Positions 15,918 through 33,589 of a DNA stretch of 37,294 nt are shown here, piece after piece. Within the stretch, counting starts at the first letter, position 1, and every line of letters starts with the position of its first letter. The DNA is taken from IMG/VR virus record IMGVR_UViG_2711768034_000003. The stretch is one strand, 5' to 3'. Source of the stretch: a virus (lineage: Duplodnaviria > Heunggongvirae > Uroviricota > Caudoviricetes). Made by a program: the position numbers and the translations under genes. The notes under the pieces were generated by a model. The model saw only the letters and a list, made by a program, of their open reading frames with translations. It did no database searches and was not told the DNA's origin.

Positions 15918-18900
15918 ATGGGTAAAGGCAGCAGTAAGGGGCATACCCCGCGCGAAGCGAAGGACAACCTGAAGTCCACGCAGCTGCTGAGTGTGATCGA
16001 TGCCATCAGCGAAGGGCCGGTTGAAGGTCCGGTGGATGGATTAAAAAGCGTGCTGCTGAACAGTACGCCGGTGCTGGACACTGAGGGGAATACCAACATC
16101 TCCGGTGTCACGGTGGTGTTCCGTGCCGGTGAGCAGGAGCAGACACCGCCGGAGGGGTTTGAATCCTCCGGCTCCGAGACGGTGCTGGGTACGGAAGTGA
16201 AATATGACACGCCGATCACCCGCACCATTACGTCTGCAAACATCGACCGTCTGCGCTTTACCTTCGGCGTGCAGGCACTGGTGGAAACCACCTCAAAGGG
16301 GGACCGGAATCCGTCGGAAGTCCGCCTGCTGGTTCAGATCCAGCGTAATGGTGGCTGGGTGACGGAAAAAGACATCACCATTAAGGGCAAAACCACCTCG
16401 CAGTATCTGGCCTCGGTGGTGGTGGGTAACCTGCCGCCGCGCCCGTTCAATATACGGATGCGCAGGATGACGCCGGACAGCACCACAGACCAGCTGCAGA
16501 ACAAAACGCTCTGGTCGTCATACACCGAAATCATCGATGTGAAACAGTGCTACCCGAACACGGCACTGGTCGGCGTGCAGGTGGATTCGGAGCAGTTCGG
16601 CAGCCAGCAGGTGAGCCGTAATTATCATCTGCGCGGGCGCATTCTGCAGGTGCCGTCGAACTATAACCCGCAGACGCGGCAATACAGCGGTATCTGGGAC
16701 GGAACGTTTAAGCCAGCATACAGCAACAACATGGCCTGGTGTCTGTGGGATATGCTGACCCATCCGCGCTACGGCATGGGGAAACGTCTTGGTGCGGCGG
16801 ATGTGGACAAATGGGCGCTGTATGTCATCGGCCAGCATTGCGATCAGTCGGTGCCGGACGGTTTTGGCGGCACGGAGCCGCGCATCACCTGTAATGCGTA
16901 CCTGACCACACAGCGTAAGGCGTGGGATGTGCTCAGTGATTTCTGCTCGGCGATGCGCTGTATGCCGGTATGGAACGGGCAGACGCTGACGTTCGTGCAG
17001 GACCGACCGTCGGATAAGGCGTGGACCTATAACCGCAGTAATGTGGTGATGCCGGATGATGGCGCGCCGTTCCGCTACAGCTTCAGCGCCCTGAAGGACC
17101 GCCATAATGCCGTTGAGGTGAACTGGATTGACCCGAACAACGGCTGGGAGACGGCGACAGAGCTTGTTGAAGATACGCAGGCCATTGCCCGTTACGGTCG
17201 TAACGTCACGAAGATGGATGCCTTTGGCTGTACCAGCCGGGGGCAGGCACACCGCGCCGGGCTGTGGCTGATTAAAACGGAACTGCTGGAGACGCAGACC
17301 GTGGACTTCAGCGTGGGTGCGGAAGGGCTTCGCCATGTACCGGGCGATGTCATTGAAATCTGCGATGATGACTATGCCGGTATCAGCACCGGCGGGCGCG
17401 TGCTGGCGGTGAACAGCCAGACCCGGACGCTGACGCTCGACCGTGAAATCACGCTGCCATCCTCCGGTACCACGCTGATAAGCCTGGTTGACGGAAGAGG
17501 CAATCCGGTCAGCGTGGAGGTCCAGTCCGTCACCGACGGCGTGAAGGTAAAAGTGAGCCGTGTTCCTGACGGCGTTGCCGGATACAGCGTATGGGGGCTG
17601 AAGCTGCCGACGCTGCGCCAGCGCCTGTTCCGCTGCGTGAGTATCCGTGAGAACGATGACGGCACGTATGCCATCACCGCCGTGCAGCATGTACCGGAAA
17701 AAGAGGCCATCGTGGATAACGGGGCGCACTTTGACGGCGACCAGAGCGGCACGGTGAATGGTGTCACGCCGCCAGCGGTGCAGCACCTGACTGCCGAAGT
17801 CACCGCAGACAGCGGGGAATATCAGGTACTGGCCCGCTGGGACACGCCGAAGGTGGTGAAGGGGGGGAGCTTTATGCTTCGCCTGACCGTGGCAGCGGAC
17901 GACGGCAGTGAGCGGCTGGTCAGCACGGCCCGGACGACAGAAACCACATACCGCTTCACGCAACTGGCGCTGGGACGGTACACGCTGACAGTCCGGGCGG
18001 TAAATGCGTGGGGACAGCAGGGCGATCCGGCGTCGGTATCGTTCCGGATTGCCGCACCGGCAGCGCCGTCGCGGATTGAGCTGACGCCGGGCTATTTTCA
18101 GATAACTGCCACGCCGCATCTTGCGGTTTATGATCCGACGGTACAGTTTGAGTTCTGGTTCTCGGAAACGCGGATTACCGATATCAGGCAGGTTGAAACC
18201 ACAGCCCGCTACCTTGGCGCGGGGCTGTACTGGATAGCCGCCAGTATCAATATCAAACCGGGCCATGATTATTACTTTTATATCCGCAGTGTGAACACCG
18301 TTGGCAAATCGGCATTCGTGGAGGCTGTTGGTCAGCCGAGTGATGACGCATCCGGCTATCTGGATTTTTTCAAAGGCGAGATAGGGAAAACCCATCTGGC
18401 TCAGGAGCTGTGGACGCAGATTGATAACGGTCAGCTTGCGCCTGACCTGGCTGAAATCAGGACGTCCATTACGGATGTCAGCAATGAAATCACGCAGACC
18501 GTCAATAAGAAACTGGAAGACCAGAGTGCGGCAATTCAGCAGATACAGAAGGTTCAGGTTGATACAAATAATAACCTGAACAGCATGTGGGCTGTGAAGC
18601 TGCAGCAGATGCAGGACGGACGCCTTTATATCGCGGGTATTGGTGCCGGTATTGAGAACACCCCTGACGGCATGCAGAGTCAGGTGCTGCTGGCGGCAGA
18701 CAGGATTGCGATGATTAATCCTGCGAATGGCAACACAAAGCCGATGTTTGTTGGGCAGGGCGATCAGATATTCATGAACGAAGTGTTCCTGAAACGCCTG
18801 ACGGCTCCCACCATTACCAGCGGTGGAAATCCACCGGCATTTTCCCTGACACCGGACGGAAAGCTGACTGCTAAAAATGCGGATATCAGCGGTAACGTGA

Positions 18901-19397
18901 ATGCGAACGCCGGGACGCTCAACAACGTCACGATTAATGAAAACTGTCGGGTTCTGGGAAAACTGTCTGCGAACCAGATTGAAGGCGATCTCGTTAAAAC
19001 AGTGGGCAAAGCTTTCCCCCGGGACTCCCGTGCACCGGAGCGGTGGCCATCAGGGACCATTACCGTCAGGGTTTATGACGATCAGCCGTTTGACCGGCAG
19101 ATTGTTATTCCCGCGGTGGCGTTTCGTGGCGCTAAACATGAGCGGGAGAATAACGATATTTATTCGTCATGCCGCCTGATAGTGAAGAAAAACGGTGCTG
19201 AAATTTATAACCGTACCGCGCTGGATAATACGCTGGTTTATACAGGTGTTATTGATATGCCTGCCGGTCGCGGTCACATGACGCTGGAGTTTTCGGTATC
19301 AGCGTGGCTGGTAAATGACTGGTATCCCACAGCCAGTATCAGTGATTTGCTGGTTGTGGTGATGAAGAAATCCACAGCAGGTATCACGATTAGCTGA
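15918..19397 (+). CDS. J: tail tip attachment / central tail fibre protein gpJ (host specificity)
   Basis: 1159-aa [78 protein letters not shown]...; lambda J-like along its length, but about 27 aa longer than the 1132 aa I recall for lambda J. Confidence 0.93.
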
Positions 19398-19465: not shown

Positions 19466-20065
19466 ATGCGTAAAGTTTGTGCAGCCATTTTGTCCGCAGC
19501 CATCTGTCTGGCCGTATCCGGTGCGCCTGCATGGGCGTCTGAACATCAGTCCACACTGAGCGCGGGGTATCTTCATGCCCGTACGAACGCTCCCGGCAGC
19601 GATAATCTGAACGGGATTAACGTGAAATACCGTTATGAGTTTACGGACACGCTGGGGCTGATTACGTCATTCAGTTATGCCAACGCTGAAGATGAGCAAA
19701 AAACGCATTACAGCGATACCCGCTGGCATGAGGATTCCGTGCGTAATCGCTGGTTCAGCGTGATGGCGGGGCCGTCTGTGCGCGTGAATGAATGGTTCAG
19801 CGCGTATGCGATGGCGGGTGTGGCTTACAGCCGTGTTTCGACTTTCTCCGGGGATTATCTCCGCGTAACTGACAACAAGGGGAAAACGCACGACGTGCTG
19901 ACCGGAAGTGATGACGGTCGCCACAGCAACACGTCTCTGGCGTGGGGGGCTGGCGTGCAGTTTAACCCGACCGAATCCGTGGCCATTGATGTCGCTTATG
20001 AAGGCTCCGGCAGTGGCGACTGGCGCACTGACGGTTTCATCGTGGGTGTCGGTTATAAGTTCTGA
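19466..20065 (+). CDS. lom: Lom outer-membrane protein (Ail/Lom/OmpX family beta-barrel)
   Basis: 199-aa ORF with signal peptide MRKVCAAILSAAICLAVSGAPAWA and C-terminal ...GFIVGVGYKF; SD GAGAGG upstream; same position as lambda lom. Confidence 0.92.
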   Translation: MRKVCAAILSAAICLAVSGAPAWASEHQSTLSAGYLHARTNAPGSDNLNGINVKYRYEFTDTLGLITSFSYANAEDEQKTHYSDTRWHEDSVRNRWFSVMAGPSVRVNEWFSAYAMAGVAYSRVSTFSGDYLRVTDNKGKTHDVLTGSDDGRHSNTSLAWGAGVQFNPTESVAIDVAYEGSGSGDWRTDGFIVGVGYKF

Positions 20066-20092
20066 TTAGCCAGGTAACACAGTGTTATGACA

Positions 20093-20119
20093 GCCCGCCG
20101 GTTCTGGCGGGCTTTTTTG
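20093..20119 (+). terminator. rho-independent terminator downstream of lom
   Basis: GCCCGCCggttctGGCGGGC followed by TTTTTTGT. Confidence 0.7.
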
Positions 20120-20129
20120 TGGGGTGAAT

Positions 20130-23100
20130 ATGGCAGTAAAGATTTCAGGTGTACTGAAAGACGGTGCAGGTAAACCGGTACAGAACTGTACAATCCAGCT
20201 GAAAGCAAAACGTAACAGCACCACGGTGGTGGCGAACACGGTGGCCTCAGAAAATCCGGATGAAGCCGGGCGTTACAGCATGGACGTTGAGTACGGTCAG
20301 TACAGCGTTATTCTGTTGGTGGAAGGCTTCCCGCCATCGCATGCCGGGACCATCACCGTGTATGAAGACTCACAACCGGGTACGCTGAATGATTTTCTCG
20401 GTGCCATGACGGAGGATGATGTCCGTCCGGAGGCACTGCGCCGCTTTGAACTGATGGTGGAAGAGGTGGCGCGTAACGCGTCCGCAGTGGCACAGAACAC
20501 GGCAGCCGCGAAGAAGTCAGCCAGCGATGCCGGCACATCAGCCCGTGAGGCGGCAACCCGTGCGACTGATGCTGCAGGCTCAGCACGTGCAGCCAGCACG
20601 TCAGCCGGACAGGCCGCGTCGTCGGCTCAGTCAGCGTCTTCCAGCGCAGGAACGGCATCAACAAAGGCCACTGAAGCATCAAAAAGTGCTGCCGCCGCAG
20701 AGTCTTCAAAAAGCGCGGCAGCCACCAGTGCCGGTGCAGCGAAAACGTCGGAAATGAATGCCGCAGCATCACAAAAATCTGCGGCCACATCTGCATCCAC
20801 CGCGACCACGAAAGCGTCAGAAGCTGCCACCTCAGCCCGGGATGCGTCGGCTTCAAAAGTGGCGGCAAAATCATCAGAAACGAGCGCTGCCTCGAGCGCC
20901 GGCAGTGCAGCTTCCTCGGCAACGGCAGCAGGAAATTCCGCGAAGGCTGCAAAAACGTCTGAGACGAATGCGGATAACAGCGCACAGGCGGCAGCAGACT
21001 CACAAACTGCATCGGCAAACTCCGCGACAGCAGCCAAAAAATCAGAAACCAACGCGAAAAATAGTGAGGCAGCAGCAAAGGTCAGCGAAACCAACGCTAA
21101 AGCGTCAGAGAACAAGGCGAAAGAATATCTCGACAAGGTCGGGGGACTCGTCAGCCCGATGACGCAATACGATTGGCCCGTTGTTACTGGTAATGAGTCT
21201 TTTTACATAAAGATCGCGAAACTTTCCGATCCCGGAAGCGGCAATTGCCATGTAACGCTAATGGTTACTAACGCTGGTAACTACGGCTCCCCTTACGGAA
21301 ACATTGACTTTATCGAGATCTCGGCGCGCGGTCTGCCTTCTTTGCTTAGTGCGGATAATGTTTCTCGTCATCTGAGTATACGCCGCTTAGGGTCAACCGG
21401 GCTGACCGATAACAACCAGATGCGTTACGGCCTGGTTAAAGGTGACGGCTTTATTGAGGTTTGGGCCTTCCAGCGCGCATTTATCAACGGCGCAAAGGTT
21501 GCGGTACTGGCGCAGACGGCACGCACGGAATTATACATTCCAGACGGATTTGTTAAGCAAACCGCCGCGCCTTCTGGATATGTTGAAAGCCCCGTTGTAA
21601 GGATTTACGACCAGGTAAACAAACCCAGCAAGGCAGATTTAGGTCTTTCCAATGCTATGCTTATAGGAGCCTTCGGTCTTGGCGGCAGCGGTGTTGGTTT
21701 GGATAATAAAATGACCGATCAGGAGCTACTACAAGAGCTAAGGGCGAAAGGTGGATGTTTCTGGAGGTCAGGAAAAGGAACAGGTAGCACAGCCACATTT
21801 TTCAGTCACGGATCTGGCATATTCTCTCGGTGTAGCGATACGTGGGCAGCGTTAAATATAGACTACGACAGTGGTAGGGTGAAGGTTTACGCTGGTAATG
21901 ACAGGAGACTTGATGATGGTACTTTTAACATCAATGAGCTATACGGAACCAGGCACAAACCATCGAAATCGGACGTTGGACTTGGCAACGTAACTAATGA
22001 TGCGCAGGTGAAAAAATCCGGCGATGTTATGTCAGGTGACTTGACGATCAATAAAGACACACCATCACTATTCCTTAGGGCAACTGGTGAAACAGGTGCT
22101 GCCGCTGTGCGGTTTTATACTGGCACTAACCAGGAGCGCGGCATAATCTATGCTGGTCCTAACACTGATTCGCTTGGCGAAGTTCGCATCAGGGCTAAAA
22201 ACGCAAAAGGTGTGTCGGGTGGTGATCTTATTGTTCGCCACGACGGGGTGGTTGAGGTTCAGAATCTCACAGCGGCTAAAAAAGTAAAAAGCGTAAACGC
22301 AGAGCTTGCAAACACATCAACTAACACGCTTGAGAACACGTTAAAAATCAGCGGTCAACAGCATACTCCGTTACTTTTAACGCGTACCGGTTATTCTGAA
22401 AACCTATCCATTGGTTTTAAGGTTGACAACCTTGATCAAAAATATCTCGGAATCAATGGCAGTGGAGATCTAGCTTTTGGTAAAAATACTGATCATAAAC
22501 AAAACAGCAGAGTAATTACACAAGCAATACTGGATAGCGGTGTGACGGTGGGCGGCAAAACAACATTTTCTGACCTTGCCACATTTAACGCAGGTATTGC
22601 GGGATCTATCAAGCCAGAAGAGCTTGACCAAAAGACTATTGATCTTAACGACCTAACCATCAAAGGCGAAAATAAAGGATCAGTCAAATACTATCAATGT
22701 AGGACTTCCGGCGGTGGCGCGAATATTACCAACAAACCTAACGGCGTAAGCGGTAACTTTTTGCTACGTGTAGAGTCACTTCGCAATAACACGGATGTAG
22801 ACTATATAAACGTACAAACCCTGGTTAGCGGCGACAAAGGACGCATGTATGTTCGTTTTGTTACTAATGGGAATTTTACAGCATGGAGCGAGCCTGTTGT
22901 TTCAGGATGGAATCAGGATGTAACCGTCAGGTCGTTAACCTCGACGACTCCATCAAAATTAGGTGGCGGGCGGATTGATGTGCTTGGAAGTACGTCAGAT
23001 TATGACAGCATGAATTGTACCGTGCGCGGTGTTGATAGCAGCGGAACTAATTCTGCGTGGTCAGTAGGCACATCAGTAGACACTGGCAAAACGTTGTATC

Positions 23101-23882
23101 TGAAAAACCACAGAACCAGTTCACAAGTGCTGATAAGTGGCGATACTGGATCTATTAAGCTACAAAATGGTAATGCAAACAAGGAGTTAGCGCTAACCGA
23201 AGATTCAGTTACCTCAAACGCTGACATTATCCTAAAAAATAGTGATGATGGTTCGCGTCTTCTTATAAGAAACTCAAACACTTCGGCGCAGTCGTGGAGT
23301 ATCAGGGCATGGGGTCAAAGCGGAAGGGAAAGCGTTTTTGAAATTGGTAACACCAAGCAATACATGTTTTACGCACAAGAAACGGCATCGGGTGGCAGAA
23401 ATTTTGACTTTAACGGTGATGTTACATGTAAGACACTATACCAAACTTCTGATCAAAGCCTTAAAGACAACATTAAGGTTATAGGTGACGCTACCGAATC
23501 CATCCGTAAAATGAATGGGTACACATACACGTTTAAGGACGACGGCCTGCCTTATGCTGGCGTTATTGCACAAGAAGTAATGGATGCGCTGCCTGAAGCG
23601 ATAGCGTTTACCACTCTTTACGGTAAAGAGCTACAGGGGCCAACAACTGACGGAAACGTGTTACGCGAAGAGATGAAGTGCCTTAGCGTTGACTATGCGG
23701 CGGTGACTGGTTTACTTGTTCAGGTCGCCCGTGAAACAGATGATCGCGTTACCGCGCTGGAAGAGGAAAACACAACGCTACGTGAAAATCTGGCAACAGC
23801 AGACACCCGGATCAGCACTCTGGAAAATCAGGTAAGCGAACTGGTTGCACTTGTCCGGCAGTTAACAGGAAGCGAACATTGA
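20130..23882 (+). CDS. stf: side tail fibre protein (Stf): lambda-like N-terminal anchor and Ala/Ser-rich repeat region fused to a non-lambda distal module with a C-terminal intramolecular chaperone (peptidase S74-like) domain
   Basis: N-terminus MAVKISGVLKDGAGKPVQNCTIQLKAKRNSTTV... and the A/S-rich repeats (about aa 130-330) match lambda Stf. From about nt 21120 the sequence diverges. C-terminus ...LYQTSDQSLKDNIKVIGDATESIRKMNGYTYTFKDDG... followed by a coiled-coil tail resembles the autocleaving chaperone domain of endosialidase/T5 L-shaped fibre type fibres. Confidence 0.85.
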   Translation: MAVKISGVLKDGAGKPVQNCTIQLKAKRNSTTVVANTVASENPDEAGRYSMDVEYGQYSVILLVEGFPPSHAGTITVYEDSQPGTLNDFLGAMTEDDVRPEALRRFELMVEEVARNASAVAQNTAAAKKSASDAGTSAREAATRATDAAGSARAASTSAGQAASSAQSASSSAGTASTKATEASKSAAAAESSKSAAATSAGAAKTSEMNAAASQKSAATSASTATTKASEAATSARDASASKVAAKSSETSAASSAGSAASSATAAGNSAKAAKTSETNADNSAQAAADSQTASANSATAAKKSETNAKNSEAAAKVSETNAKASENKAKEYLDKVGGLVSPMTQYDWPVVTGNESFYIKIAKLSDPGSGNCHVTLMVTNAGNYGSPYGNIDFIEISARGLPSLLSADNVSRHLSIRRLGSTGLTDNNQMRYGLVKGDGFIEVWAFQRAFINGAKVAVLAQTARTELYIPDGFVKQTAAPSGYVESPVVRIYDQVNKPSKADLGLSNAMLIGAFGLGGSGVGLDNKMTDQELLQELRAKGGCFWRSGKGTGSTATFFSHGSGIFSRCSDTWAALNIDYDSGRVKVYAGNDRRLDDGTFNINELYGTRHKPSKSDVGLGNVTNDAQVKKSGDVMSGDLTINKDTPSLFLRATGETGAAAVRFYTGTNQERGIIYAGPNTDSLGEVRIRAKNAKGVSGGDLIVRHDGVVEVQNLTAAKKVKSVNAELANTSTNTLENTLKISGQQHTPLLLTRTGYSENLSIGFKVDNLDQKYLGINGSGDLAFGKNTDHKQNSRVITQAILDSGVTVGGKTTFSDLATFNAGIAGSIKPEELDQKTIDLNDLTIKGENKGSVKYYQCRTSGGGANITNKPNGVSGNFLLRVESLRNNTDVDYINVQTLVSGDKGRMYVRFVTNGNFTAWSEPVVSGWNQDVTVRSLTSTTPSKLGGGRIDVLGSTSDYDSMNCTVRGVDSSGTNSAWSVGTSVDTGKTLYLKNHRTSSQVLISGDTGSIKLQNGNANKELALTEDSVTSNADIILKNSDDGSRLLIRNSNTSAQSWSIRAWGQSGRESVFEIGNTKQYMFYAQETASGGRNFDFNGDVTCKTLYQTSDQSLKDNIKVIGDATESIRKMNGYTYTFKDDGLPYAGVIAQEVMDALPEAIAFTTLYGKELQGPTTDGNVLREEMKCLSVDYAAVTGLLVQVARETDDRVTALEEENTTLRENLATADTRISTLENQVSELVALVRQLTGSEH

Positions 23883-23919: not shown

Positions 23920-24862
<943 letters not shown>

Positions 24863-24942
24863 CTAAGTCTTTGAATTTACATAGTACAAAAAAGATGCTT
24901 TTCCTCATAATGTGAATTAATTTTATGTTTCGTTTGATGATT

Positions 24943-25008
24943 GGACCGGTCTCGAAAACCGGAGTAGGGGCAACTCTACCGGGGGTTCAAATCCCCCTCT
25001 CTCCGCCA
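24943..25008 (+). other. 3' fragment of a tRNA-Ser(CGA) gene (anticodon stem-loop to CCA); att-like core, not a complete tRNA
   Basis: GGACCGGTCTCGAAAACCGGAGTAGGGGCAACTCTACCGGGGGTTCAAATCCCCCTCTCTCCGCCA matches the 3' two-thirds of enterobacterial tRNA-Ser (serU type); upstream sequence cannot form the acceptor or D arms. Confidence 0.8.
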
Positions 25009-25590
25009 CTTTATCAATGACTTATCTCCCGACTTCCCGCCTTGCTTTTCCTAAACAGAACAATCGTAGAATATTCTTGAAGGGTTAGATCGTCACTGTT
25101 TTCTGTTCGATACTGTGACATTCAGCACTTGATTCGCTATGGATCTGACAGGAAGGTTTCGAGCGAAAATCTGCAGTTATTCAGTCGTTTTCTTATCGGT
25201 CACCATTATTCTTTTAGACATTGATCCTACAAAGCTGCCGCAAAGTTGGTGGTGGGAACTGAAGTTGCGTAGAGAAGGGGTCAATATCCGGAGGCAAACA
25301 TGGGCTGGCAAAAGTGTAGCGGTATTAGGCGCAGCTATTTAGCCTAGTTATGTTTTATGAAAACTTGATATCATATAAGTGTCTTACTTATTGGCTGTAA
25401 ATAAGTCCTTCCTAAGGAATTGTTTCTTGAGTATCATTTGTAACTGTAACGGAATTTATAATCCTTTGCTTTATTGTTACGGTATTTTTTATCACACCCT
25501 ATTTTTAGTGGTTTTTTATACTGAAGTTTGGCAAAGTGAACTTTATATACATATACTTCATCCTGGTTTCAGTTAAATTGGGTGGATGAT

Positions 25591-26334
25591 ATGGCAACTA
25601 CATGTTCAGTTATATTGATTTTGGAGTCCTTTGATGTTTATTTCGGAAAAGAGAGTGTGTTTCTGGAGAGAGGTTCATCTGTACTTGTCGACTCTAGCTC
25701 TAGAGATTTTTTCCTGACATATCCTGAAAGAGTGATAGTGGCGGATTTTGGCGCTGAGTTTATTAGTCGCTATTTGAAAGCTAATAACTTAAGGGATATT
25801 TCTGATTGTAGGGAATATCCATCTTATTTAAAAATAAACTTTGCTGACTTCAGTTTAATTAAAGGATTAATTAGTTGGGCTAATCACTGTGCTGAATACA
25901 TAGAAATTTTTGATGAGTCTATTGCTTTTACATGTCTCTCTGCATTTTCTTCTGAAAAACAATTTGGAGTATTTCTGTTTGGATGTTTGAAAAGCACAGG
26001 GGCTAAAGTTAAAACGATTATTCATACGGATTTATCTGCACCATGGCGTCTTAAGGATATATCATCAAGATTATATCTCAGCGAAAGTTTACTAAAGAGG
26101 AAATTGAAAGAAGAGGGGGTATCATTCAGTAAGATCATACTTGATGAGAGGATGCAAATGGCTGAATATTTACTCAGCACTCGTTGTTATCCTATTAGTA
26201 AAGTAGCTAAGGTCTGTGGTTATGCCAGTGTCTCATACTTTACTTATGTATTTAGACGTTATTTTGGTGTTTCTCCAAGTCAATACTCTCAGAGGAGTTC
26301 AGAAAGTAAAATTCTTACTCACCAGGGAATCTGA
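25591..26334 (+). CDS. AraC/XylS-family transcriptional regulator (Rns/AggR-like size and layout)
   Basis: ATG at 25591 with GGTGGA SD-like sequence upstream. C-terminal dual HTH ...LYLSESLLKRKLKEEGVSFSKIILDERMQMAEYLL...ISKVAKVCGYASVSYFTYVFRRYFGVSPSQY typical of AraC family; AT-rich codon usage. Confidence 0.8.
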   Translation: MATTCSVILILESFDVYFGKESVFLERGSSVLVDSSSRDFFLTYPERVIVADFGAEFISRYLKANNLRDISDCREYPSYLKINFADFSLIKGLISWANHCAEYIEIFDESIAFTCLSAFSSEKQFGVFLFGCLKSTGAKVKTIIHTDLSAPWRLKDISSRLYLSESLLKRKLKEEGVSFSKIILDERMQMAEYLLSTRCYPISKVAKVCGYASVSYFTYVFRRYFGVSPSQYSQRSSESKILTHQGI

Positions 26335-26337
26335 TCA

Positions 26338-26810
26338 TTGTTCTTGCCCCCTTATTTCCAGACAGGGGGTGTATCTTAAGTTAACGTTACCCGCTGACGT
26401 CGATATTCTCGCGGAGAGCGATAACCCAACGCACTGTGCGGATGGTTTTCATTGTAATGTTCGATCGCCACTGCAAGATTATGCAATGCCGTTCTTACAT
26501 TCGGTTTCGGCATGAACGCGATGTAGTCTTCCTTCATCGTTTTCACGAACCTTTCTGCAATTCCATTACTCTGAGGACTGCTGATTGCCGTTGTGCAGGG
26601 CTCCAGATTCAACTCTCTGGCGAACTGCCGTGTTTCATGCGCTCTATACGCTGAACCGTTATCTGTCAGCCACTGGATGGACTGTTCCGGTACTTTATCG
26701 CCAAAGCGTTTTTCTATCGCTCCTAACATGACATCCTGCACTGTCGCTTTATCGTAACCGCCCGTGCTTGCGGCCCAGTCTATGGCTTCACGATCGCAAC
26801 AGTCCAGGGC
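26338..26810 (-). mobile_element. truncated IS2-group (IS3-family) insertion sequence: terminal end plus 3' part of the transposase gene
   Basis: End sequence TTGCCCCCTTATTTCCAGACA resembles the IS2 terminus. The reverse-strand ORF encodes ...[14 protein letters not shown]...[10 protein letters not shown]...[12 protein letters not shown], the C-terminal DDE integrase core of IS3-family OrfB. Homology stops near 26805-26810. Confidence 0.75.
26376..26804 (-). pseudogene. IS3-family transposase OrfB, C-terminal about 140 codons only (5' truncated)
   Basis: In-frame homology to IS2 InsD extends upstream of the first Met (…[28 protein letters not shown]…) to a stop; no N-terminal half and no OrfA. 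Confidence 0.7.
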
Positions 26811-27088
26811 GATTCATCTGGGCCAATCCTTGCTCATAACAGGCATTCACTTCAGTCATGGCAGAAAGGTATGCATGCTGGAGAAGTCGTAAAAGAAAAG
26901 AAGACTGCTGCGCCGTTTGTCGTCACGTTTATCTTCATTGGCTATGCAAGTCGTAATACAAGGTGGGACAAAACTGAGACACATAAGGCCTCGCAATGGC
27001 TTGCAAGGCTTTACATGTTTTGATGTGGTGGGACGTGTGAGCGCAGTGTTGATGGGGTAATGCTTTGAATTAGAAGCGGATTCTTATA

Positions 27089-27134
27089 ATTCGTAATGCG
27101 AAGGTCGTAGGTTCGACTCCTATTATCGGCACCA
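27089..27134 (+). other. 3' fragment of a tRNA-Thr(CGU) gene (anticodon loop to CCA); att-like core, not a complete tRNA
   Basis: ATTCGTAATGCGAAGGTCGTAGGTTCGACTCCTATTATCGGCACCA matches the 3' part of enterobacterial thrW-type tRNA-Thr; the 5' acceptor strand GCCGATA is absent upstream. Confidence 0.8.
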
Positions 27135-27411
27135 TCTTTTCTCGTAAAATCATTAAGTTGCTATTGCAGTGTTTTGCGTTGTTCAACACTAATGTACATT
27201 TTTGCGCGTTATGAGTGTGGCAAAATTGTGGCAGACACAGTGAGATTGTTTGTGGATCAATGCAAGAGTATGCTAACAGCATGTTTACCTTGCAGCTCCC
27301 CCTTGTCTTTGAGCAATACACTACTTGATGGCTGCTGGTTACGAACGTTGTCAGAGATTGCTATCACAAGGGGATGGCGCTGAGAATTCATCCTAAATGA
27401 TTGAGGCCAGC

Positions 27412-28461
27412 ATGGAAAAGGAATTACAGCTCAAAGCTGATGAACAAATAAAAGCATACTCCAAAAAAATAGATTTTTACACCTCAGAATATACTGTAGA
27501 AATACTTGCACAAAAAGTAAGAGCTGGCGAATATACAGTCCCTGCATATCAACGTGAGTATACTTGGGATGAACCAAGAAAATGTAAATTTATTGAGTCG
27601 CTAATCATAGGTCTTCCTATTCCATTCGTATTTTTCTGGATGAATGACGATACCGGAAAACTAGAAATTGTTGATGGTTCGCAGCGGCTTAGAACCATTG
27701 AAGAATATTTTAATAATCGTTTAACCCTTGATGGGCTAGAGCGTTTGGATCTTCTTAATGGTACAAGATTTGAAGATTTACCATTAGCACGCCAAAGAAA
27801 AATTTTAAATAAATCTATCCGGGGAATAATACTATCCGAAGATACAGATATGGAAGCAAGGGTTGATTTATTTGAAAGGATAAATACAGGCAGTAAAGTT
27901 GCTAATCCTGCTGAGGTTAGACGCGGTGTTTTACGTGGTCCATTTATGGATTTAATCAATGAATTGGCTGCTAATCAACTGTTTATTAAACTAGCGCCTG
28001 TTTCTGCAAAGCAAAAAAAAGAACGAGAGCCAGAAGAACTAGTAACTAGATTTTTTGCATACTCCGATGGTCTTGACGGATATAGAGATGATGTATCAGC
28101 ATTTATATTTAGATATATAAAGCGAATGAATGAGTTGTTCGAGGAGGATGCAGCTCTGGCTCAACAATATAGAGATCGCTTTTCTCGAATGTTAGCATTC
28201 GTAGAACAAAGTTTCCGTCTCGGATTTAAGAAAACAGTAAAAGGTACAACGACACCACGTGCTCGTTTCGAGTCCATTGCGATAGGCTCGCATTTAGCAT
28301 TAGAAATTAATGGTTCGCTCCAAGTAACTAAGGAACAAACTGACGAAATATTAGAAAGCGATTCCTTTAAAGCTGAAATTCGATCTGATGGCGCTAACGC
28401 AATAAGAAGATTGCAGGGAAGAATTGGTTATATTAGAGATGCTCTTTTAGAGAGGGCTTGA
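27412..28461 (+). CDS. DUF262 / ParB-like nuclease-domain protein (GmrS-like N-terminal domain family)
   Basis: ATG at 27412 with GAGG SD 6 nt upstream (track ORF starts 15 nt earlier). Signature YTVPAYQREYTWDE...LEIVDGSQRLRTIEEYF characteristic of DUF262. Confidence 0.8.
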   Translation: MEKELQLKADEQIKAYSKKIDFYTSEYTVEILAQKVRAGEYTVPAYQREYTWDEPRKCKFIESLIIGLPIPFVFFWMNDDTGKLEIVDGSQRLRTIEEYFNNRLTLDGLERLDLLNGTRFEDLPLARQRKILNKSIRGIILSEDTDMEARVDLFERINTGSKVANPAEVRRGVLRGPFMDLINELAANQLFIKLAPVSAKQKKEREPEELVTRFFAYSDGLDGYRDDVSAFIFRYIKRMNELFEEDAALAQQYRDRFSRMLAFVEQSFRLGFKKTVKGTTTPRARFESIAIGSHLALEINGSLQVTKEQTDEILESDSFKAEIRSDGANAIRRLQGRIGYIRDALLERA

Positions 28462-28463
28462 TC

Positions 28464-29189
28464 ATGCAACTAGTAAAAGATGTTTTTGATGAAAGAGTTG
28501 CTGATATCGAGAGCTATTTTGAATTGGTGAATAATGTTGAGCTTGCAATTGGCTCTGGAGGAGCGATATTCAGTGTTAATGGGACGCAATACCAAATAAA
28601 TCCTGATCAGCAGAAGATAATGTATTCTGGAATATATCTACATTTGTATAATTTGGTCGAATCGACGATCTCTATGTTAATAGATGCTGTCGAACGGCAT
28701 GCGGCGCAAGGAATTAATGGACAACTGGTTCTACTAACTGAAAACATGAAGAAGCTGTATGTTAAATCTGTAGCAGCTCCTTTTGAATCAATAAATAATG
28801 ATTTACGGTTAGAGAAGGCGTTAGAACTATTTGACCAAGTATTAAATATAAAGCCTCTTGAACTTAGGATCCCGCCGGGAGGCGGAGGTAATTGGGACTT
28901 AAAAGAAATAGAGAGGATAAGTAAGAGTATAGGTGTTGATGTCACTCTTCCCAGAGCGCTTAGGGCAAAGGTAAATGCTCCATTTAGAGACGATAAAGGA
29001 CCTATTCGGCTAGTTAAAGAAATAAGAAACAAATTAGCTCATGGTTCTCTTTCATTTACACAATGTGGTACGAACCATGTAGCCAGTGATTTTAGGCGGT
29101 TGATTGATATAGTCAAAGAATACTTAGCCCATATAATCCGATCTTATGAAAACTTCATAACCGCACAAGGTTATAAGATTGCACAATGA
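28464..29189 (+). CDS. HEPN-like domain protein (R-x4-H motif), translationally coupled to the DUF262 gene
   Basis: ATG at 28464, 2 nt after the DUF262 stop, with AGAGGG SD inside the upstream gene; C-terminal EIRNKLAHGSLSF fits the HEPN Rx4-6H motif; 241 aa. Confidence 0.65.
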   Translation: MQLVKDVFDERVADIESYFELVNNVELAIGSGGAIFSVNGTQYQINPDQQKIMYSGIYLHLYNLVESTISMLIDAVERHAAQGINGQLVLLTENMKKLYVKSVAAPFESINNDLRLEKALELFDQVLNIKPLELRIPPGGGGNWDLKEIERISKSIGVDVTLPRALRAKVNAPFRDDKGPIRLVKEIRNKLAHGSLSFTQCGTNHVASDFRRLIDIVKEYLAHIIRSYENFITAQGYKIAQ

Positions 29190-29192
29190 TAT

Positions 29193-30257
29193 TTATTTGG
29201 CCAAGGACGTAATTATACTTTGGCCAATAATCTCTCCTAACTTGACCGGAACTGCATTTCCGATCATTTTAGCTAATGTAGCTACGCTTAGCGGGTTTTC
29301 GTCATCATGAAACTTATAAGCTAAAGGAAATGATTGTAGTAATGCAGCCTCCCTTAGACTGATCGCTCGATCTTGCACAGGATGCCCAAATCTACCATTC
29401 CCATAACCATTACATTGAGTAGTAATTGTTGGTGATGGCTCATCCCATGTCATCCGTCCATAAACACTTGGATAAGTTTTTCCTGTCATTTTCTTATGGC
29501 AGCTAGCCCTTAGTTCTTCCGGCCAATCCAGCCAAGAACCGCCAGGTTTTGAATATTGAATCCGCTTTAAGTTTATAGGGCTTAGAATTGACGAGCGATG
29601 TATAGGATCAACCTTATCCTTTTCGCCTGCTGTTATGCGAGGAAGATGCTCAATCGCATCTCTTACAGTGACATATTTATCTGCAGTATGCGTAGCTGGT
29701 ATTATTGATATCTCGCTAACTTTTGATGCGATTAATACTAATCTTTTTCGCGTTTGAGGGATTCCATAATCAGGACAAAATACGATTTTATAATCAAATG
29801 AATAACCGTTATGCCGAAGAGTTGCTAAAAACGCATTAAATACTCCCTGTTCTGCCAAGCCAGGAACATTTTCCATTGTAACGAAATCAGGAGTGATCTC
29901 ATTGATCAGGCGCCCAAAGCTTTCCAGAAGGTTCCATCGTTTGTCAGGAGAAGTAGTTCGTTTTATATTTGCTCTGGAATATGTTGAGAAGGGTTGGCAA
30001 GGTGCACATCCAGCAAGGAGGGTGTAATCGCCGCCAGCCAGATACTTTGCTACATCATTTCCTGAAAGATGAGTTACATCTTGTTTTATAAATCTGGCGT
30101 TGTTATTGATTTCATACGCATAACGACAAGATTCCTCGATATCATATCCGGCGGTCACGGATATGCCTGAACGCTGGAGACCATGCGTTAGCCCCCCGGC
30201 TCCACAAAAAAGATCCACTGCCTTAATTTTTGTATGATTTTTCAACGTAAACCTCAC
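29193..30257 (-). CDS. DNA (cytosine-5)-methyltransferase
   Basis: Motif I DLFCGAGG, motif IV GCAPCQPFS (PCQ), ENV, QTRKR, and GNAVPV all present in canonical order. Start is GTG at 30257 or, more likely, TTG at 30245 preceded by a GAGG SD. Convergent with the HEPN gene, 3 nt apart. Confidence 0.9.
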   Translation of the reverse strand: MRFTLKNHTKIKAVDLFCGAGGLTHGLQRSGISVTAGYDIEESCRYAYEINNNARFIKQDVTHLSGNDVAKYLAGGDYTLLAGCAPCQPFSTYSRANIKRTTSPDKRWNLLESFGRLINEITPDFVTMENVPGLAEQGVFNAFLATLRHNGYSFDYKIVFCPDYGIPQTRKRLVLIASKVSEISIIPATHTADKYVTVRDAIEHLPRITAGEKDKVDPIHRSSILSPINLKRIQYSKPGGSWLDWPEELRASCHKKMTGKTYPSVYGRMTWDEPSPTITTQCNGYGNGRFGHPVQDRAISLREAALLQSFPLAYKFHDDENPLSVATLAKMIGNAVPVKLGEIIGQSIITSLAK

Positions 30258-30600
30258 TACTTAGACGTGGCGAATTATAGCAAAATTTACAATGAACATC
30301 GAGGGATTTTATTTCCTTTGAAATCATGTATATAGTTATTTTTTAAGTTAATACTCAACAGTTAGATGCTGAGATACTCTTTCCTGCCAGACAATCAAAC
30401 ATAGTTCCACCTAGTTTTCCTGCAAGGACTTTGAATCTGTTCACCGCCTGCAAAATTAGGTCGAAAGAATGTTACAACAACAACATACACAGGCAATCAA
30501 ACACGCTTAGTCGTCCATTAGTATTTCCGGCTGATTAGATGTAAGATCTTAAGGTCTAATGTAGGCTGTTCCATTCAGGCCAGAGTGGCAAAATAAAAAG

Positions 30601-30630
30601 GCCCGATCTTACCAGTCGGGCTTCTTTATA
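30601..30630 (-). terminator. rho-independent terminator (reads best on the minus strand, downstream of the HigA-like gene)
   Basis: GCCCGAtcttaccagtCGGGC; on the minus strand the hairpin is followed by CTTTTTTATTTT. Confidence 0.6.
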
Positions 30631-30821
30631 TCGGCTTTTAATGTCGCCTGTACCACTGCTAAAATGACTTACCTAGTCATGGCAGGTTCCCATCATCAAG
30701 GATCGGATTTTTTAATCCTCAGTCGTCCGAGTATATTATCGCTTTAATAAGTCGTTAGAAATGTATGAGTATTATTCAAAGCAAATTATGTATTAGGACT
30801 AAGTAATCTAATTGAATAATC

Positions 30822-31079
30822 TTACTTTTGTTTATTAAACCATGCCTCATGTAGCTCTTGCAGTTTCACCCAAAAAGATGCATCTGTATTGAAAATTATC
30901 GAGAGTTGAATAGCTTCTTCAAGAGTTATATTTCGCTCATTTTTAATTATTTCCCAAATTTTTTCATATGATGTATCCATCAGTTCAGCAAGTCTTGCGG
31001 GAGGCATATCCAATGGTTTCAAGAATTCTTCGTATAAAATCTCTCCGACAGTTGAAGGTGCAGCATTTATTGTCCTCAT
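30822..31079 (-). CDS. HigA-family antitoxin-like XRE HTH protein (orphan; no adjacent toxin ORF)
   Basis: 85-aa ORF with ...TVGEILYEEFLKPLDMPPARLAELMDTSYEKIWEIIKNERNITLEEAIQLSIIFNTDASFWVKLQ... matching the HigA/VapI addiction-module antidote pattern; strong SD AAGGGGGGG upstream of the ATG at 31079. Confidence 0.7.
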   Translation of the reverse strand: MRTINAAPSTVGEILYEEFLKPLDMPPARLAELMDTSYEKIWEIIKNERNITLEEAIQLSIIFNTDASFWVKLQELHEAWFNKQK

Positions 31080-31122
31080 ACCCCCCCTTTTTTTTAAACG
31101 TCATCGGATTCCTTACAGTAAT

Positions 31123-31138
31123 TTGTTTAGCTAAACAA
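31123..31138. repeat. 16-bp perfect palindrome TTGTTTAGCTAAACAA (candidate operator)
   Basis: Self-complementary; related palindromes GGTTAGCTAACC (31234-31245) and GTTTAGCTAAAC (31312-31323) share the TTAGCTAA core. Confidence 0.6.
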
Positions 31139-31411
31139 ATCAGAGAGTAAGGTTAGTTGAAGTGTTTTTCTTACTCAAATTCGATATATCCGTTGTCAGA
31201 AATGAATCATTTACAAACAGTGTTTCTTATAAAGGTTAGCTAACCAAATTTATAAGTCATCTACAATCCCCTGTTATTTACATTTTGTTTCATTTTATTT
31301 ATTGCTATTTAGTTTAGCTAAACAATCTATTTTATCATGTATAATCTGTGTATTTATCCACAGATTCTGTTAATAATATTGTGTATAACTTGTTTGCTTA
31401 TTTTTTATTAT

Positions 31412-31477
31412 ATGACATATGAGGTGCGCCTTTATGACATATGAGGTACGCTTTCATGACATTTGAGGTACGGATAT
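31412..31477 (+). repeat. three tandem 22-bp direct repeats (iteron-like): ATGACATATGAGGTGCGCCTTT / ATGACATATGAGGTACGCTTTC / ATGACATTTGAGGTACGGATAT
   Basis: Read directly from the sequence; contiguous, no spacers, in an AT-rich non-coding stretch. Confidence 0.8.
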
Positions 31478-31722
31478 AATTTAAAATTGTCATATTAAAC
31501 AAGTGAATATATCGCTTTTCCACACCTCTCTAACCTGATCTTTAACCTTTTATATAACCAAAAAGATTAAAGGAATTATTAAAACCTTAGTGTCATTCAG
31601 AAATCGGTCAATAAAACCAATTTCATATGGAGTAAGAATCCGATGAATAAAAACCCTGTTGACATTATTATTTTTGCCAGTAAGTTTTAATTATTCTCAA
31701 TTCATAACGTTGGTTAGCAAAC

Positions 31723-31750
31723 TTTAGCGGCTAAAATTTTAGCCGCTAAA
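31723..31750. promoter_or_regulatory. 28-bp perfect palindrome TTTAGCGGCTAAAATTTTAGCCGCTAAA (candidate operator) just upstream of the HTH/AT-hook gene
   Basis: Perfect dyad symmetry; ends 22 nt before the ATG at 31773; shares the TTAGC/GCTAA half-site with the upstream palindromes. Confidence 0.65.
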
Positions 31751-31772
31751 ATCCTCAAATTTCTACTGAGAG

Positions 31773-32066
31773 ATGGGTTCTTCGATGAAATCAGTTATGC
31801 CAGAACTTATAACCGTTGAAGAGTTGGCTTTTGCATTAAAGAAAACTGTAAAAAGTATCCGCAGTGATGCAACGCGAAATCCAAAATGTCTTCCACCAAG
31901 ATGCCGTCTTCCCGGTAATAAACGTCTTCTCTGGCGTAGAGAAGATGTTAAGGACTGGATAGATAAATCTGTTGAGTCAAAGACAGAAAATGACGATATA
32001 GCGAAAGAGATAAATAGGTTTCAAAGGAAACGTGGCAGGCCGCCAAAACCCAAGCCGCGAGAATAA
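31773..32066 (+). CDS. small DNA-binding protein, excisionase/AlpA-like HTH with C-terminal AT-hook (RGRPPKPKP)
   Basis: 97-aa ORF; ...ELITVEELAFALKKTVKSIRSDATRN... and ...RLLWRREDVKDWI... resemble MerR/excisionase-type HTH; basic tail FQRKRGRPPKPKPRE is an AT-hook-like motif. Confidence 0.55.
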   Translation: MGSSMKSVMPELITVEELAFALKKTVKSIRSDATRNPKCLPPRCRLPGNKRLLWRREDVKDWIDKSVESKTENDDIAKEINRFQRKRGRPPKPKPRE

Positions 32067-32169
32067 AAATATTTCTTAGGGTCATTCAAATAATTTCCCT
32101 TCCAATAAACACATATGCTGCACATTTTTACACTACTAATCCTGCACAAATGCTTTAGGAAAACACACT

Positions 32170-32336
32170 GAGTACACAGGAATACACAATACGTACACAG
32201 ATTCACAACGGCAAATGTAGGGCAGGATATGTAAAGTAGGCCCACCGTAAACGGTGCTTCTACTTTACCTTCCCTTATTCGCAGCTGAGCTGCTCAACGG
32301 AGTCCTGCTCTGCGAGGCTGATCGGCTACCGCCTGT
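32170..32336 (+). promoter_or_regulatory. candidate origin of transfer (oriT) / MobC operator region: TACACAG repeats and nested inverted repeats
   Basis: gagTACACAGgaaTACACAatacgTACACAG (about 32172-32210); nested IR GTAAAGTAGgcCCACCGtaaaCGGTGcttCTACTTTAC (about 32228-32266); then GCAGCtgaGCTGC and ...GAGTCCTGCTCT... immediately upstream of the MobC-like gene. Confidence 0.4.
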
Positions 32337-32348
32337 ATGGAGAATGAT

Positions 32349-32702
32349 ATGACCGTTTCTCAGACTAGAAAAAATAGTACACCAATTAAAGTTTATTGTT
32401 TGCCAGATGAAAAAGCGCAAATCCAGGAAAATGCTGAAGCATCTGGCTTAAGTGTAGCGAGTTTCATTCGTAAAGTAGCAATGGGTTATCAGGTTGAATC
32501 TATGGTAGATATTGAACAGGTTGTAGAGCTTAGCCGAGTAAATGCTGATCTTGGTCGACTTGGTGGGTTACTTAAACTGTGGTTAGCTGACGATCCACGC
32601 ACAGTTGATTTTTCACCCTCATTGATAAAAACGTTGCTTGCTAAAATAGAATCAACCAGACAAGAACTAAGAAATATTATGGATAGAATCTTGGATAAAT
32701 AA
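32349..32702 (+). CDS. MobC-like ribbon-helix-helix relaxosome accessory protein
   Basis: ATG at 32349 with GGAG SD. N-terminal RHH-like IKVYCLPDEKAQIQENAEASGLSVASFIRKVAMGY and central VELSRVNADLGRLGGLLKLWL resembling the MobC family motif. Confidence 0.55.
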   Translation: MTVSQTRKNSTPIKVYCLPDEKAQIQENAEASGLSVASFIRKVAMGYQVESMVDIEQVVELSRVNADLGRLGGLLKLWLADDPRTVDFSPSLIKTLLAKIESTRQELRNIMDRILDK

Positions 32703-32783
32703 ATTTATGGTTTCCTAAATATCTGTATTTGTTAAAAGTACGAGTTTTCAATATTAATAATCAATTAAATTTGAGGTGGGCAA

Positions 32784-33578: not shown

Positions 33579-33589
33579 GGGAGAGCTGA

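Follow-up and report, generated by a model that had tools for sequence, protein, structure and literature searches.

The Ala/Ser-rich tract near the beginning of the side tail fibre gene stf in the 37,294-nt tailed-phage sequence analysed here (IMG/VR record IMGVR_UViG_2711768034_000003; this whole stretch is called the window) is very probably the proximal alpha-helical coiled-coil rod of a lambda-type Stf protein, with the long open frames on both strands and the exchange of whole heptads as side effects of its build. The tract (20454–21125, + strand; residues 109–332 counted from the ATG) consists of 32 uninterrupted heptads; an earlier note, which had placed it at 20500–21120, had thus located it closely. 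A heptad shaft at this place is an ordinary, already described feature of such fibres and part of known biology.

The window encodes a lambda-type side tail fibre

The stf gene (20130–23882, + strand) codes for 1250 aa from an ATG at 20130, which is most likely its start, while the ORF list begins at a GTG at 20124. From the ATG the protein N-terminus reads MAVKISG, as in lambda Stf, and a GGGGTGA motif lies directly 5' of it. Identification of the gene as stf in the earlier note was borne out by a Pfam search, in which PF08400 (phage_tail_N) matched residues 3–136 over model positions 1–134 of 134 with 239.5 bits (cut-off 26.6), and by the match of residues 3–96 to the collar chain of Ur-lambda (9e7m, 94 residues, E = 3.5e-51). 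The N-terminal collar domain (20130–20411, + strand, residues 1–94), which matches 9e7m_Ta ('Tail fiber protein' of Ur-lambda), would dock the fibre on the tail tip. Upstream of stf lie a J-sized ORF (15918–19397) and a Lom-like ORF (19466–20065), and the order J–lom–stf is also annotated in E. coli TA8571 and in phage vB_EcoS-640R1. Between lom and stf there is a terminator-like hairpin with a T run (20092–20118, + strand; 9-pair stem with 7 GC pairs). By its collar model and by its position behind J and lom, where the tail operon ends, the gene is a lambda-type stf.

At its other end the protein carries a C-terminal S74 intramolecular-chaperone region (23448–23879, + strand; PF13884, Peptidase_S74, 46.7 bits, cut-off 22). 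It begins with SDQSLK at residue 1107, the Ser of which has 143 residues behind it, and a short coiled coil follows; the T5-type fibre chain 6f45 is matched weakly. By analogy with its family, the domain would be self-cleaving. The window protein thereby resembles endosialidase-type tail spikes and fibres, whose SDxxxK motif it shares; this likeness is confined to the distal end of the protein and does not extend to the tract.

The tract is a strict heptad repeat at the protein level

Over residues 111–340 of the listed ORF, the tract contains 34.8% Ala, 20.4% Ser and 10% Thr, compared to 6.6% Ala in the remainder of the protein. A single register runs through all 32 consecutive heptads, of which 26 have Ser at position 1 and 29 have Ala at position 5; in the assignment of core positions Ala falls on a and Ser on d. 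Residue-identity autocorrelation rose above the shuffled null only at lags of 7, 14 and so on up to 70 residues (z = 5.9–10.0), with a peak |z| of 2.7 in a control segment of the same length taken from this protein. At the DNA level, tested against a codon-shuffle null, only multiples of 21 nt stood out, the strongest being 84 nt (z = 6.7), and direct repeats within the tract were spaced by 21, 42, 63, 84, 126, 147 and 231 nt. The internal periodicity anticipated by the earlier note was therefore found, at multiples of 7 aa and 21 nt only; its repeat units are real, although the loose SA..A..S motif it had described is replaced by a strict heptad in the autocorrelation.

A classical, VNTR-like tandem repeat with copies at least about 70% alike was ruled out by TRF, which reported only two arrays, each of about 2 copies with a period of 12–13 nt (scores 34–43), and the periodicity is thus one of the protein. 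The direct-repeat families are scattered, with members 65–81% alike.

The tract is predicted to form a helical rod

In an AlphaFold2 monomer prediction, residues 99–213 and 223–338 formed helices at pLDDT values of about 70–83. The single-chain model as a whole had a mean pLDDT of 52.5 and a pTM of 0.24 and was poor outside the helix; the fold-back of the helix at residues 214–222 is probably an artefact of modelling a monomer. Small core residues recur at two positions, 3 and 4 residues apart, as in a coiled-coil heptad. The PDB structures matched by the protein leave the tract uncovered, 9e7m stopping at residue 94.

For the homologous protein of Ur-lambda, a cryo-EM/ET study (Sci Adv 2025, PMC12617516) describes residues 102–393 of Stf as a proximal coiled coil, a trimeric bundle connected by linkers of about 10 residues to three collar domains, with 12 Stf copies forming the collar at the gpV/gpM junction. 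The window protein has the same collar, the same position of the tract between collar and distal part and the same J–lom–stf context as Ur-lambda gpStf (PMC12617516; PDB 9e7m/9mgh for the collar), and by analogy with lambda its rod would likewise be trimeric.

It seems highly improbable that the tract is instead an intrinsically disordered, low-complexity Ala/Ser linker whose periodicity is a relic of DNA duplications. Such a reading would suit the extreme composition (65% Ala, Ser and Thr together), the lack of a solved structure for the tract and a core of small and polar residues in place of Leu, Ile or Val; an Ala and Ser core is indeed atypical for coiled coils and is a counterpoint to the rod. 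A linker of this kind is nevertheless difficult to reconcile with one register that stays unbroken over 32 heptads here and, although the sequences have diverged, over as many as about 48 in relatives, with the helix predicted throughout the tract, with the rigid trimeric bundle seen for the homologous segment of Ur-lambda (PMC12617516), and with natural length variants that are overwhelmingly multiples of 7 aa. Of 74 distinct homologous tracts, nearly all kept one phase over 200–335 residues, and a second Stf family has a likewise unbroken tract of 33–35 heptads. The register is broken in two natural variants, by +9 aa in locus L045 and by +4 aa in locus L057, which indicates that strict continuity is not obligatory.

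Long heptad rods whose length changes as repeat units are gained or lost by recombination between the repeats in their coding DNA are also known from the stalks of trimeric autotransporter adhesins, from streptococcal M proteins and from T4 fibritin. These rods have mainly hydrophobic cores, as opposed to the Ala(a)/Ser(d) core of the window, and are without sequence relationship to it.

Open alternative frames are by-products of the tract

The three alternative-frame ORFs of 134, 169 and 241 aa pointed out in the earlier note exist exactly as described, and all three were judged to be spurious: a 241-aa antisense ORF in frame -1 (20353–21078, - strand, TTG start), a 169-aa antisense ORF in frame -2 (20627–21136, - strand) and a 134-aa ORF in sense frame +1 (20758–21162, + strand). 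The ORF list further contains a 76-aa ORF (20527–20757, + strand) in the same frame as the 134-aa ORF, frame +1 having a single stop across the tract, at 20755, and a 100-aa ORF (20297–20599, - strand). The three open frames had 1, 2 and 1 stops (the 2 in frame -1), compared to 13.8, 14.1 and 7.4, respectively, for 230 codons randomly sampled from the rest of stf.

The earlier note had attributed the open frames to GC-rich, codon-biased repeats. That they are by-products of the tract is correct, but codon bias matters for frame -1 only. When the tract was recoded in a simulation with any synonymous codons, 1.2–2.8 stops were expected in frame +1 and 0.9–1.7 in frame -2, and 1 was observed in each; the 134-aa ORF is open from amino-acid composition alone and the 169-aa ORF under any synonymous recoding. 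Both frames are open because stops in them need T at codon position 2 or a Tyr codon: T at position 2 makes up 3.9% in the tract versus 25% elsewhere, and Tyr codons are absent from the tract. In frame -1, 2 stops were observed against 10.5 expected with uniform codon use and 8.9 with the usage of the rest of the gene. This frame alone depends on codon choice, because T-ending codons are scarce (15% in the tract versus 31% elsewhere), and the openness of the 241-aa ORF is tied to the small number of NCT|A junctions. General avoidance of TA or CTAG would also yield few such junctions.

The same three frames were open in 79 distinct homologous tracts, and the GenBank record of lambda lists orf206b under the homologous segment. 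Variable sites were distributed over stf codon positions 1, 2 and 3 as 46, 52 and 116. Frame -2 seems nearly as conserved as stf, with an amino acid identity to lambda of 0.805 compared to 0.811. Because the wobble positions of the two frames fall together, this apparent conservation does not speak for coding. A Pfam search of four alternative-frame ORFs gave no match, and a promoter scan found no sigma-70-like site on either strand.

We give almost no credence to a real overlapping gene among these ORFs, even in the case of the best candidate, the 241-aa antisense ORF, which the residues of Stf do not oblige to be open. The longest open run of frame -1 (209 codons) was reached in only 0.5% of synonymous-codon permutations, and the frame is poor in stops in homologues (median 1.04 per 100 codons). 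Its stop count, on the other hand, is ordinary (2 versus 4.7 expected, with as few in 9.5% of permutations), the test of five frames was post hoc, and the frame is interrupted 3–4 times in several relatives. Amino acid identity between relatives is 0.66 in this frame, well below the 0.81 of the stf frame. In addition to lacking a domain match and a promoter-like site, the ORF has a translation rich in Leu, Arg, Pro and Trp that is typical for the antisense of Ala and Ser codons. Because of the ordinary stop count and the stops in several relatives, frame -1 was rejected as an overlapping gene despite its unusual longest run. The open frames are better understood as a consequence of a protein made almost only of Ala, Ser, Thr, Lys, Glu and Asn, which would leave three of the five alternative frames nearly free of stops and so give rise to long, meaningless ORFs.

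Homologous tracts vary in length mostly by whole heptads

The earlier note had named the tract a plausible hotspot of recombination or length variation. Length does vary, with 17 to 51 heptads among homologues, and the tract contains mosaic junctions, while the fibre type of the window is itself fixed at 32. Tract length was taken as the distance from the MVEEVA anchor to a distal signature. In fibres of the YRNQAQ type, 119, 140, 231 or 238 aa led to the same distal signature (17, 20, 33 and 34 heptads), and in those of the lambda type 203, 238, 245, 252 or 357 aa (29, 34, 35, 36 and 51 heptads), so that every one of these distances is a multiple of 7. Two entries of the lambda-type list were discarded as length variants: P0082 (249 aa) is frameshifted and P0040 (368 aa) has a partial duplication of the N-domain. 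In the S74-type fibre of the window, 35 of 35 sequences had exactly 32 heptads, which indicates that the variation lies between fibre types and lineages and does not reflect rapid slippage.

Deletion junctions fell at the recurring motifs SAR[ED]A, AAK[ST]SETNA (AAKxSETNA) and SK[ED]. Counted by reading and with kinship ignored, the independent length-changing events are few, about 8 in register and 2 out of register; the +9 aa in L045 is a duplication of AESSKSAAA at a direct repeat spaced by 27 nt. The length variation among homologues is thus real and mostly quantised in whole heptads. In-register products could arise from the 21-nt period of the DNA repeats even without selection for register.

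The tract of the window is a three-part mosaic

Two junctions, near 20968 and 21104, divide the tract into three parts. The first (20968–20975, + strand) lies in heptad 25, just after SETNA. Upstream of it, the window has about 86–90% DNA identity per heptad to long lambda-type fibres (about 93% over the first 175 codons); downstream it is unrelated to them, the identity per heptad falling from 18–19 to 9–13 of 21 positions. Similarity to the window ended at residue 284 in 59 of 77 viral loci, and megablast matches ended at query nt 845/848. The second junction (21104–21106, + strand) is at the boundary of heptads 31 and 32, after SETNAKA, and separates a part with 18–21 of 21 identical positions per heptad to YRNQAQ-type fibres from the window-specific distal module, with a drop from 20/21 through 10/21 to 2–7/21. 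A break at residue 331 was seen in seven loci.

Compared to lambda, the tract is common over the first about 25 heptads (81% amino acid identity over 175 codons), and the last seven heptads of the window come from another fibre lineage than those of lambda. The window has 32 heptads versus 36 in lambda (to the KGIVQLS signature), and its distal part is an S74-chaperone fibre with no tfa behind it; lambda, by comparison, carries a gp37-like tip and Tfa. The stf genes of Escherichia phages vB_EcoS-640R1 and Ayreon, annotated as 'side tail fiber protein', are 98.1% and 96.7% identical, respectively, to that of the window over their first 1177 nt, a length that covers the whole tract; mEp460 has only the first 980 nt of stf in common, and similarity ends inside the tract.

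Matches were present in 5021 of 5426 complete E. coli genomes, with a median of 2 places per genome and a maximum of 14, which corresponds to roughly 16,000 stf copies in all. In a scan of one genome per species, hits were mostly lambda DNA contaminating unrelated assemblies, together with a few loci of Escherichia, Shigella and Citrobacter. Chi sites were absent from the whole window and therefore cannot explain local exchange. In experiments, lambda recombines with the defective prophages Rac and Qin across diverged stf/tfa homology (PMC3945230).

That the length differences reflect only an ancient, separate descent of fibre families, with the tract not being a preferred site of exchange, is very improbable. 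The invariance of the window fibre type (32 heptads in 35 sequences) and the occurrence of most loci in few length classes tied to particular distal modules would fit such a history. It would leave unexplained why, within each of two fibre types, a single distal module stands behind tracts of several lengths (17, 20, 33 or 34 heptads and 29, 34, 35, 36 or 51, respectively), why flanks are near-identical and deletions end cleanly at repeated motifs, why identity changes in sharp steps within the three-part tract of the window, and why small repeat-mediated indels such as that of L045 exist.

Model and implications

In the model that we favour, three Stf chains would dock on the tail tip via their N-terminal collar domains and, after a short linker, wind into a parallel three-stranded coiled coil with core Ala (a) and Ser (d). 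A rod of 32 unbroken heptads would be about 33 nm long and would keep the distal receptor-binding part, which ends in the S74 chaperone domain, clear of the tail. The DNA of the tract being rich in imperfect repeats with a 21-nt period, such as those coding for AAK(T/S)SETNA, homologous or microhomology-mediated exchange may occur between heptads, either within one gene or between co-resident stf copies, for which the several copies in most E. coli genomes could serve as partners. Such exchange would delete, duplicate or swap whole heptads and may thereby create new rod lengths and acquire new distal modules while the coiled-coil register is kept.

A further and rather doubtful proposal is that rod length is an adaptively tuned trait. 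Unequal exchange between the stf copies of co-resident prophages, taking place at SETNA-type motifs, would remove or duplicate whole heptads and so vary the rod from 17 heptads (about 18 nm) to 51 (about 53 nm). Length would then set the reach of receptor binding beyond the J tip to match the depth of capsule or O-antigen, and in-register products would be kept by selection.

The tract opens no long-standing question. It matters mainly for annotation, in that the long ORFs seen in stf shafts on either strand, orf206b of lambda among them, are composition artefacts, and that frameshifts at the A5–A6 runs of the tract run into the open frames and produce chimeric 'proteins' of 250–480 aa in databases. 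A secondary use lies in phage engineering: the natural junctions, together with the rule of whole heptads, indicate at which places and in which register fibre modules can be fused, or the shaft shortened, with the coiled coil left intact.

The side tail fibre gene and its neighbourhood

Terminase, head and tail genes in the window make up a late operon of the lambda kind. In it, a J-sized ORF (15918–19397) and a Lom-like ORF (19466–20065) precede stf, listed as a long ORF at 20124–23882 (+); J–lom–stf is also the annotated gene order in relatives. The Stf product matches the Pfam families PF08400 ('Prophage tail fibre N-terminal', 239.5 bits) and PF13884 ('Peptidase_S74, chaperone of endosialidase', 46.7 bits), and its residues 3–96 are near-identical to the Ur-lambda side tail fibre collar domain (PDB 9e7m chain Ta, E 3.5e-51). 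Annotated side tail fibre genes of vB_EcoS-640R1 and Ayreon are 98.1% and 96.7% identical, respectively, over the first 1177 nt of the window stf. Since the N-terminus MAVKISG is the same as in lambda, a GGGGTGA motif stands immediately 5' of ATG 20130, and a terminator-like hairpin (20092–20113; a stem of 9 pairs, 7 of them GC, with a trailing T run) separates lom from stf, the true start is most likely ATG 20130, giving a product of 1250 aa. Because only about 10 nt separate this strong hairpin from the ribosome-binding site of stf, expression of the gene may depend on read-through or antitermination. The S74 domain begins with SDQSLK at residue 1107 and, by analogy with its family, should cleave itself after folding, a prediction that fits the lack of a tfa gene among the genes after stf in the window.

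The genes downstream (23921–35160) resemble cargo of defence systems or mobile elements and comprise a LEM-3-like GIY-YIG protein (23921–24817, −), an AraC-type regulator (25582–26334), an overlapping GmrSD_N/DUF262 and HEPN pair (27397–29189), a C5 DNA methylase (29193–30257, −), a NikA-like protein (32337–32702) and a TrbL/VirB6 protein (33757–35160). Conjugation-type genes beside a lambda-like late operon are unusual.

The Ala/Ser-rich tract is an unbroken heptad array

The Ala/Ser-rich tract that the earlier note had described in Stf is present and sharper than stated: set in sevens from MVEEVAR, nt 20454–21125 form 32 consecutive heptads without a phase break, and the loose SA..A..S unit proposed there is better given as a strict coiled-coil heptad. 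Ser fills position 1 in 26 of the 32 heptads and Ala position 5 in 29, with Ala also frequent at positions 2, 4 and 6; the spacing of four residues from 1 to 5 and three from 5 to the next 1 places Ala at core position a and Ser at core position d. The internal periodicity that had been expected was found in shuffle-based lag tests. Residue identity exceeded the null (2000 residue shuffles) at lags 7, 14 and so on to 70 only (z 5.9–10.0), the highest |z| in an equal-length control stretch of the same protein being 2.7, and the DNA exceeded a codon-shuffle null at multiples of 21 nt only, most strongly at 84 nt (z 6.7). Imperfect direct repeats are spaced by 21, 42, 63, 84, 126, 147 and 231 nt. 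Tandem Repeats Finder returned almost no arrays in the tract, so the periodicity reflects a constraint on the protein and not a DNA array of recent origin.

In a single-chain AlphaFold2 model, a helix spans residues 99–338 (helix pLDDT about 70–83; the rest of the model is poor), its sole break being a fold-back at residues 214–222 that we read as a monomer artefact. [quoted passage not shown] Together, these observations identify the tract, by homology, as the proximal coiled-coil rod of the side fibre, which would be trimeric as in lambda and have a predicted length of about 33 nm for 32 heptads (at about 0.148 nm per residue).

Amino-acid composition opens two of the three alternative frames

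Across the tract, frames +1, −1 and −2 contain 1, 2 and 1 stops, compared with 13.8, 14.1 and 7.4 in 230 random codons from the rest of stf; frame +2 contains 9 (20.4 in the random codons). Frame +1 holds the ORFs of 134 aa (20758–21162, +) and 76 aa (20527–20757, +), and frame −2 those of 169 aa (20627–21136, −) and 100 aa (20297–20599, −). Stops in these two frames require T at codon position 2 or a Tyr codon, so both are open from amino-acid composition alone: T occupies position 2 in 3.9% of tract codons versus 25.3% elsewhere in stf, and uniform synonymous recoding would still leave them nearly stop-free (2.8 stops expected in +1, 1.7 in −2). Frame −1, with the 241-aa ORF (20353–21078, −), closes at NCT followed by A, and its openness therefore depends on codon choice; 10.5 stops are expected with uniform codon usage and 8.9 with that of the rest of the gene, and T-ending codons make up 15% in the tract versus 31% elsewhere. 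The earlier explanation by GC-rich, codon-biased repeats (G+C is 58.9% in the tract versus 47.2% in the rest of stf) thus covers part of the cause: codon choice matters in frame −1, whereas frames +1 and −2 owe their openness to amino-acid composition and less to G+C content or codon bias. The in-register antisense frame (−0) is the most closed (17 stops; 10.7 in the random codons) because TCA is the favoured Ser codon. In 79 distinct homologous tracts, too, frames +1, −1 and −2 have hardly any stops.

Nothing supports any of these ORFs as a gene: their products had no Pfam match, a promoter scan found no promoter-like site for them, variable sites at stf codon positions 1, 2 and 3 number 46, 52 and 116, and relatives share less amino-acid identity in frames +1 and −1 than in that of stf. 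The apparent conservation of frame −2 was rejected as a sign of coding, being explained by the wobble positions that this frame shares with stf. The lambda GenBank record lists 'orf206b' beneath the corresponding segment, and a further very long alternative-frame ORF of the tail region (625 aa, 16518–18395, −) lies antisense inside the J gene.

Rod length varies between fibre lineages in whole heptads

Homologues were sampled via the collar domain (80 viral contigs, 42 genome loci and 120 database proteins), and length was measured in residues from the MVEEVA anchor to a recognisable distal signature. Fibres with the window's signature, YLDKVGG, measured 224 aa (32 heptads) in all 35 sequences (21 distinct tracts). 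The YRNQAQ type measured 119, 140, 231 or 238 aa (17, 20, 33 or 34 heptads) and the lambda type, KGIVQLS, 203, 238, 245, 252 or 357 aa (29, 34, 35, 36 or 51 heptads). The repeat number thus ranges from 17 to 51 heptads among relatives, and the suggested length variation occurs between fibre lineages, in heptad steps, but not within the window's own type. Two lambda-type entries break register, L057 (361 aa, +4) and L045 (366 aa, +9), the latter by an exact duplication of AESSKSAAA at a 27-nt-spaced direct repeat present in the window. Two further candidate lambda-type variants were rejected, database protein P0082 being frameshifted and P0040 carrying a partial domain duplication.

The short forms are clean deletions with endpoints at recurring motifs, removing 14 (SAREAA|...|SARDA), 16 (AAKS SET|...|SETNAKA) or 22 heptads (SK[ED] to SKDEA), and SETNAK[AS] is gained or lost as one or two copies. 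We count about eight in-register and two out-of-register events, kinship ignored; if indel lengths were random modulo 7, at least eight of ten in register would have a probability of 6e-6, a statistic that ignores phylogeny, and in-register products would be favoured by the 21-nt DNA periodicity in its own right. The heptad phase stays the same from end to end in almost all homologues, and a second Stf family has 33–35 unbroken heptads with a large internal in-register duplication.

The tract carries two mosaic junctions

By sequence comparison, the window tract is a mosaic. Heptads 1–24 match long lambda-type fibres at 18–19 of 21 positions per heptad, an identity that collapses in heptad 25 right after SETNA (about nt 20968–20975); heptads 28–31 match the YRNQAQ type at 18–21 of 21 positions up to the heptad 31/32 boundary (about nt 21104), and what follows is particular to the S74-type fibre. 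Of 77 viral loci, 66 lose their similarity to the window at one or other of these junctions, and phage megablast matches stop at the equivalent query positions, 845/848 and 980. Both junctions lie inside the tract, in support of the recombination site previously thought plausible in the fibre shaft. Exchange partners are abundant, with matches in 5021 of 5426 complete E. coli genomes (median two, up to 14 places per genome), and experiments have demonstrated recombination between lambda and the defective prophages Rac and Qin across diverged stf/tfa homology (PMC3945230). The whole window contains no Chi site.

Annotation and database anomalies

About 19 database entries ('prophage tail fiber N-terminal domain-containing protein' or 'hypothetical') are stf sequences frameshifted within the tract, most of them at its A5–A6 runs (window 20681, 20708, 20773, 20951 and 21036), beyond which the reading continues in the open +1 or +2 frame over tens to hundreds of residues. 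Since many lie on contigs of megabase size, genuine pseudogenes are a possible explanation, as are homopolymer errors in long reads. The collar also occurs at 91% identity in assemblies labelled Leeuwenhoekiella, Pseudomonas, Shewanella, Oceanobacillus, Kitasatospora, Bradyrhizobium and others (genome contigs L085–L101, L104–L106, L111, L117, L119 and L120), several of them on contigs of about 48.5 kb with about 1x coverage; L085 encodes the truncated orf-401 of lambda PaPa, ending HWTVRH. These matches look like lambda DNA contaminating unrelated assemblies. P0073, an Stf N-terminal fragment, is named 'short-chain fatty acid transporter, partial' by one source, likely an annotation slip, and in P0040, a partial protein from Salmonella Typhimurium, an extra copy of the collar domain is inserted three heptads into the tract. 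Most full-length stf matches in complete genomes carry two annotated features; at L123 (E. coli TA8571, NZ_AP024205.1 1219241–1228999), in a prophage adjoining ssrA (tmRNA), RefSeq divides the homologous stf in two, one part being a pseudogene 'missing C-terminus' and the other a separate small 'tail fiber domain-containing protein'.

Overall, the analysis confirms the original observation and supports its interpretation, apart from corrections to the repeat unit, the cause of the open frames and the pattern of length variation. The whole-heptad pattern of natural length variants was not found stated in the literature searched. The findings agree with prior knowledge of lambda Stf and mosaic tail fibres, and the whole-heptad pattern, though neat as a description, would come as no surprise to specialists.
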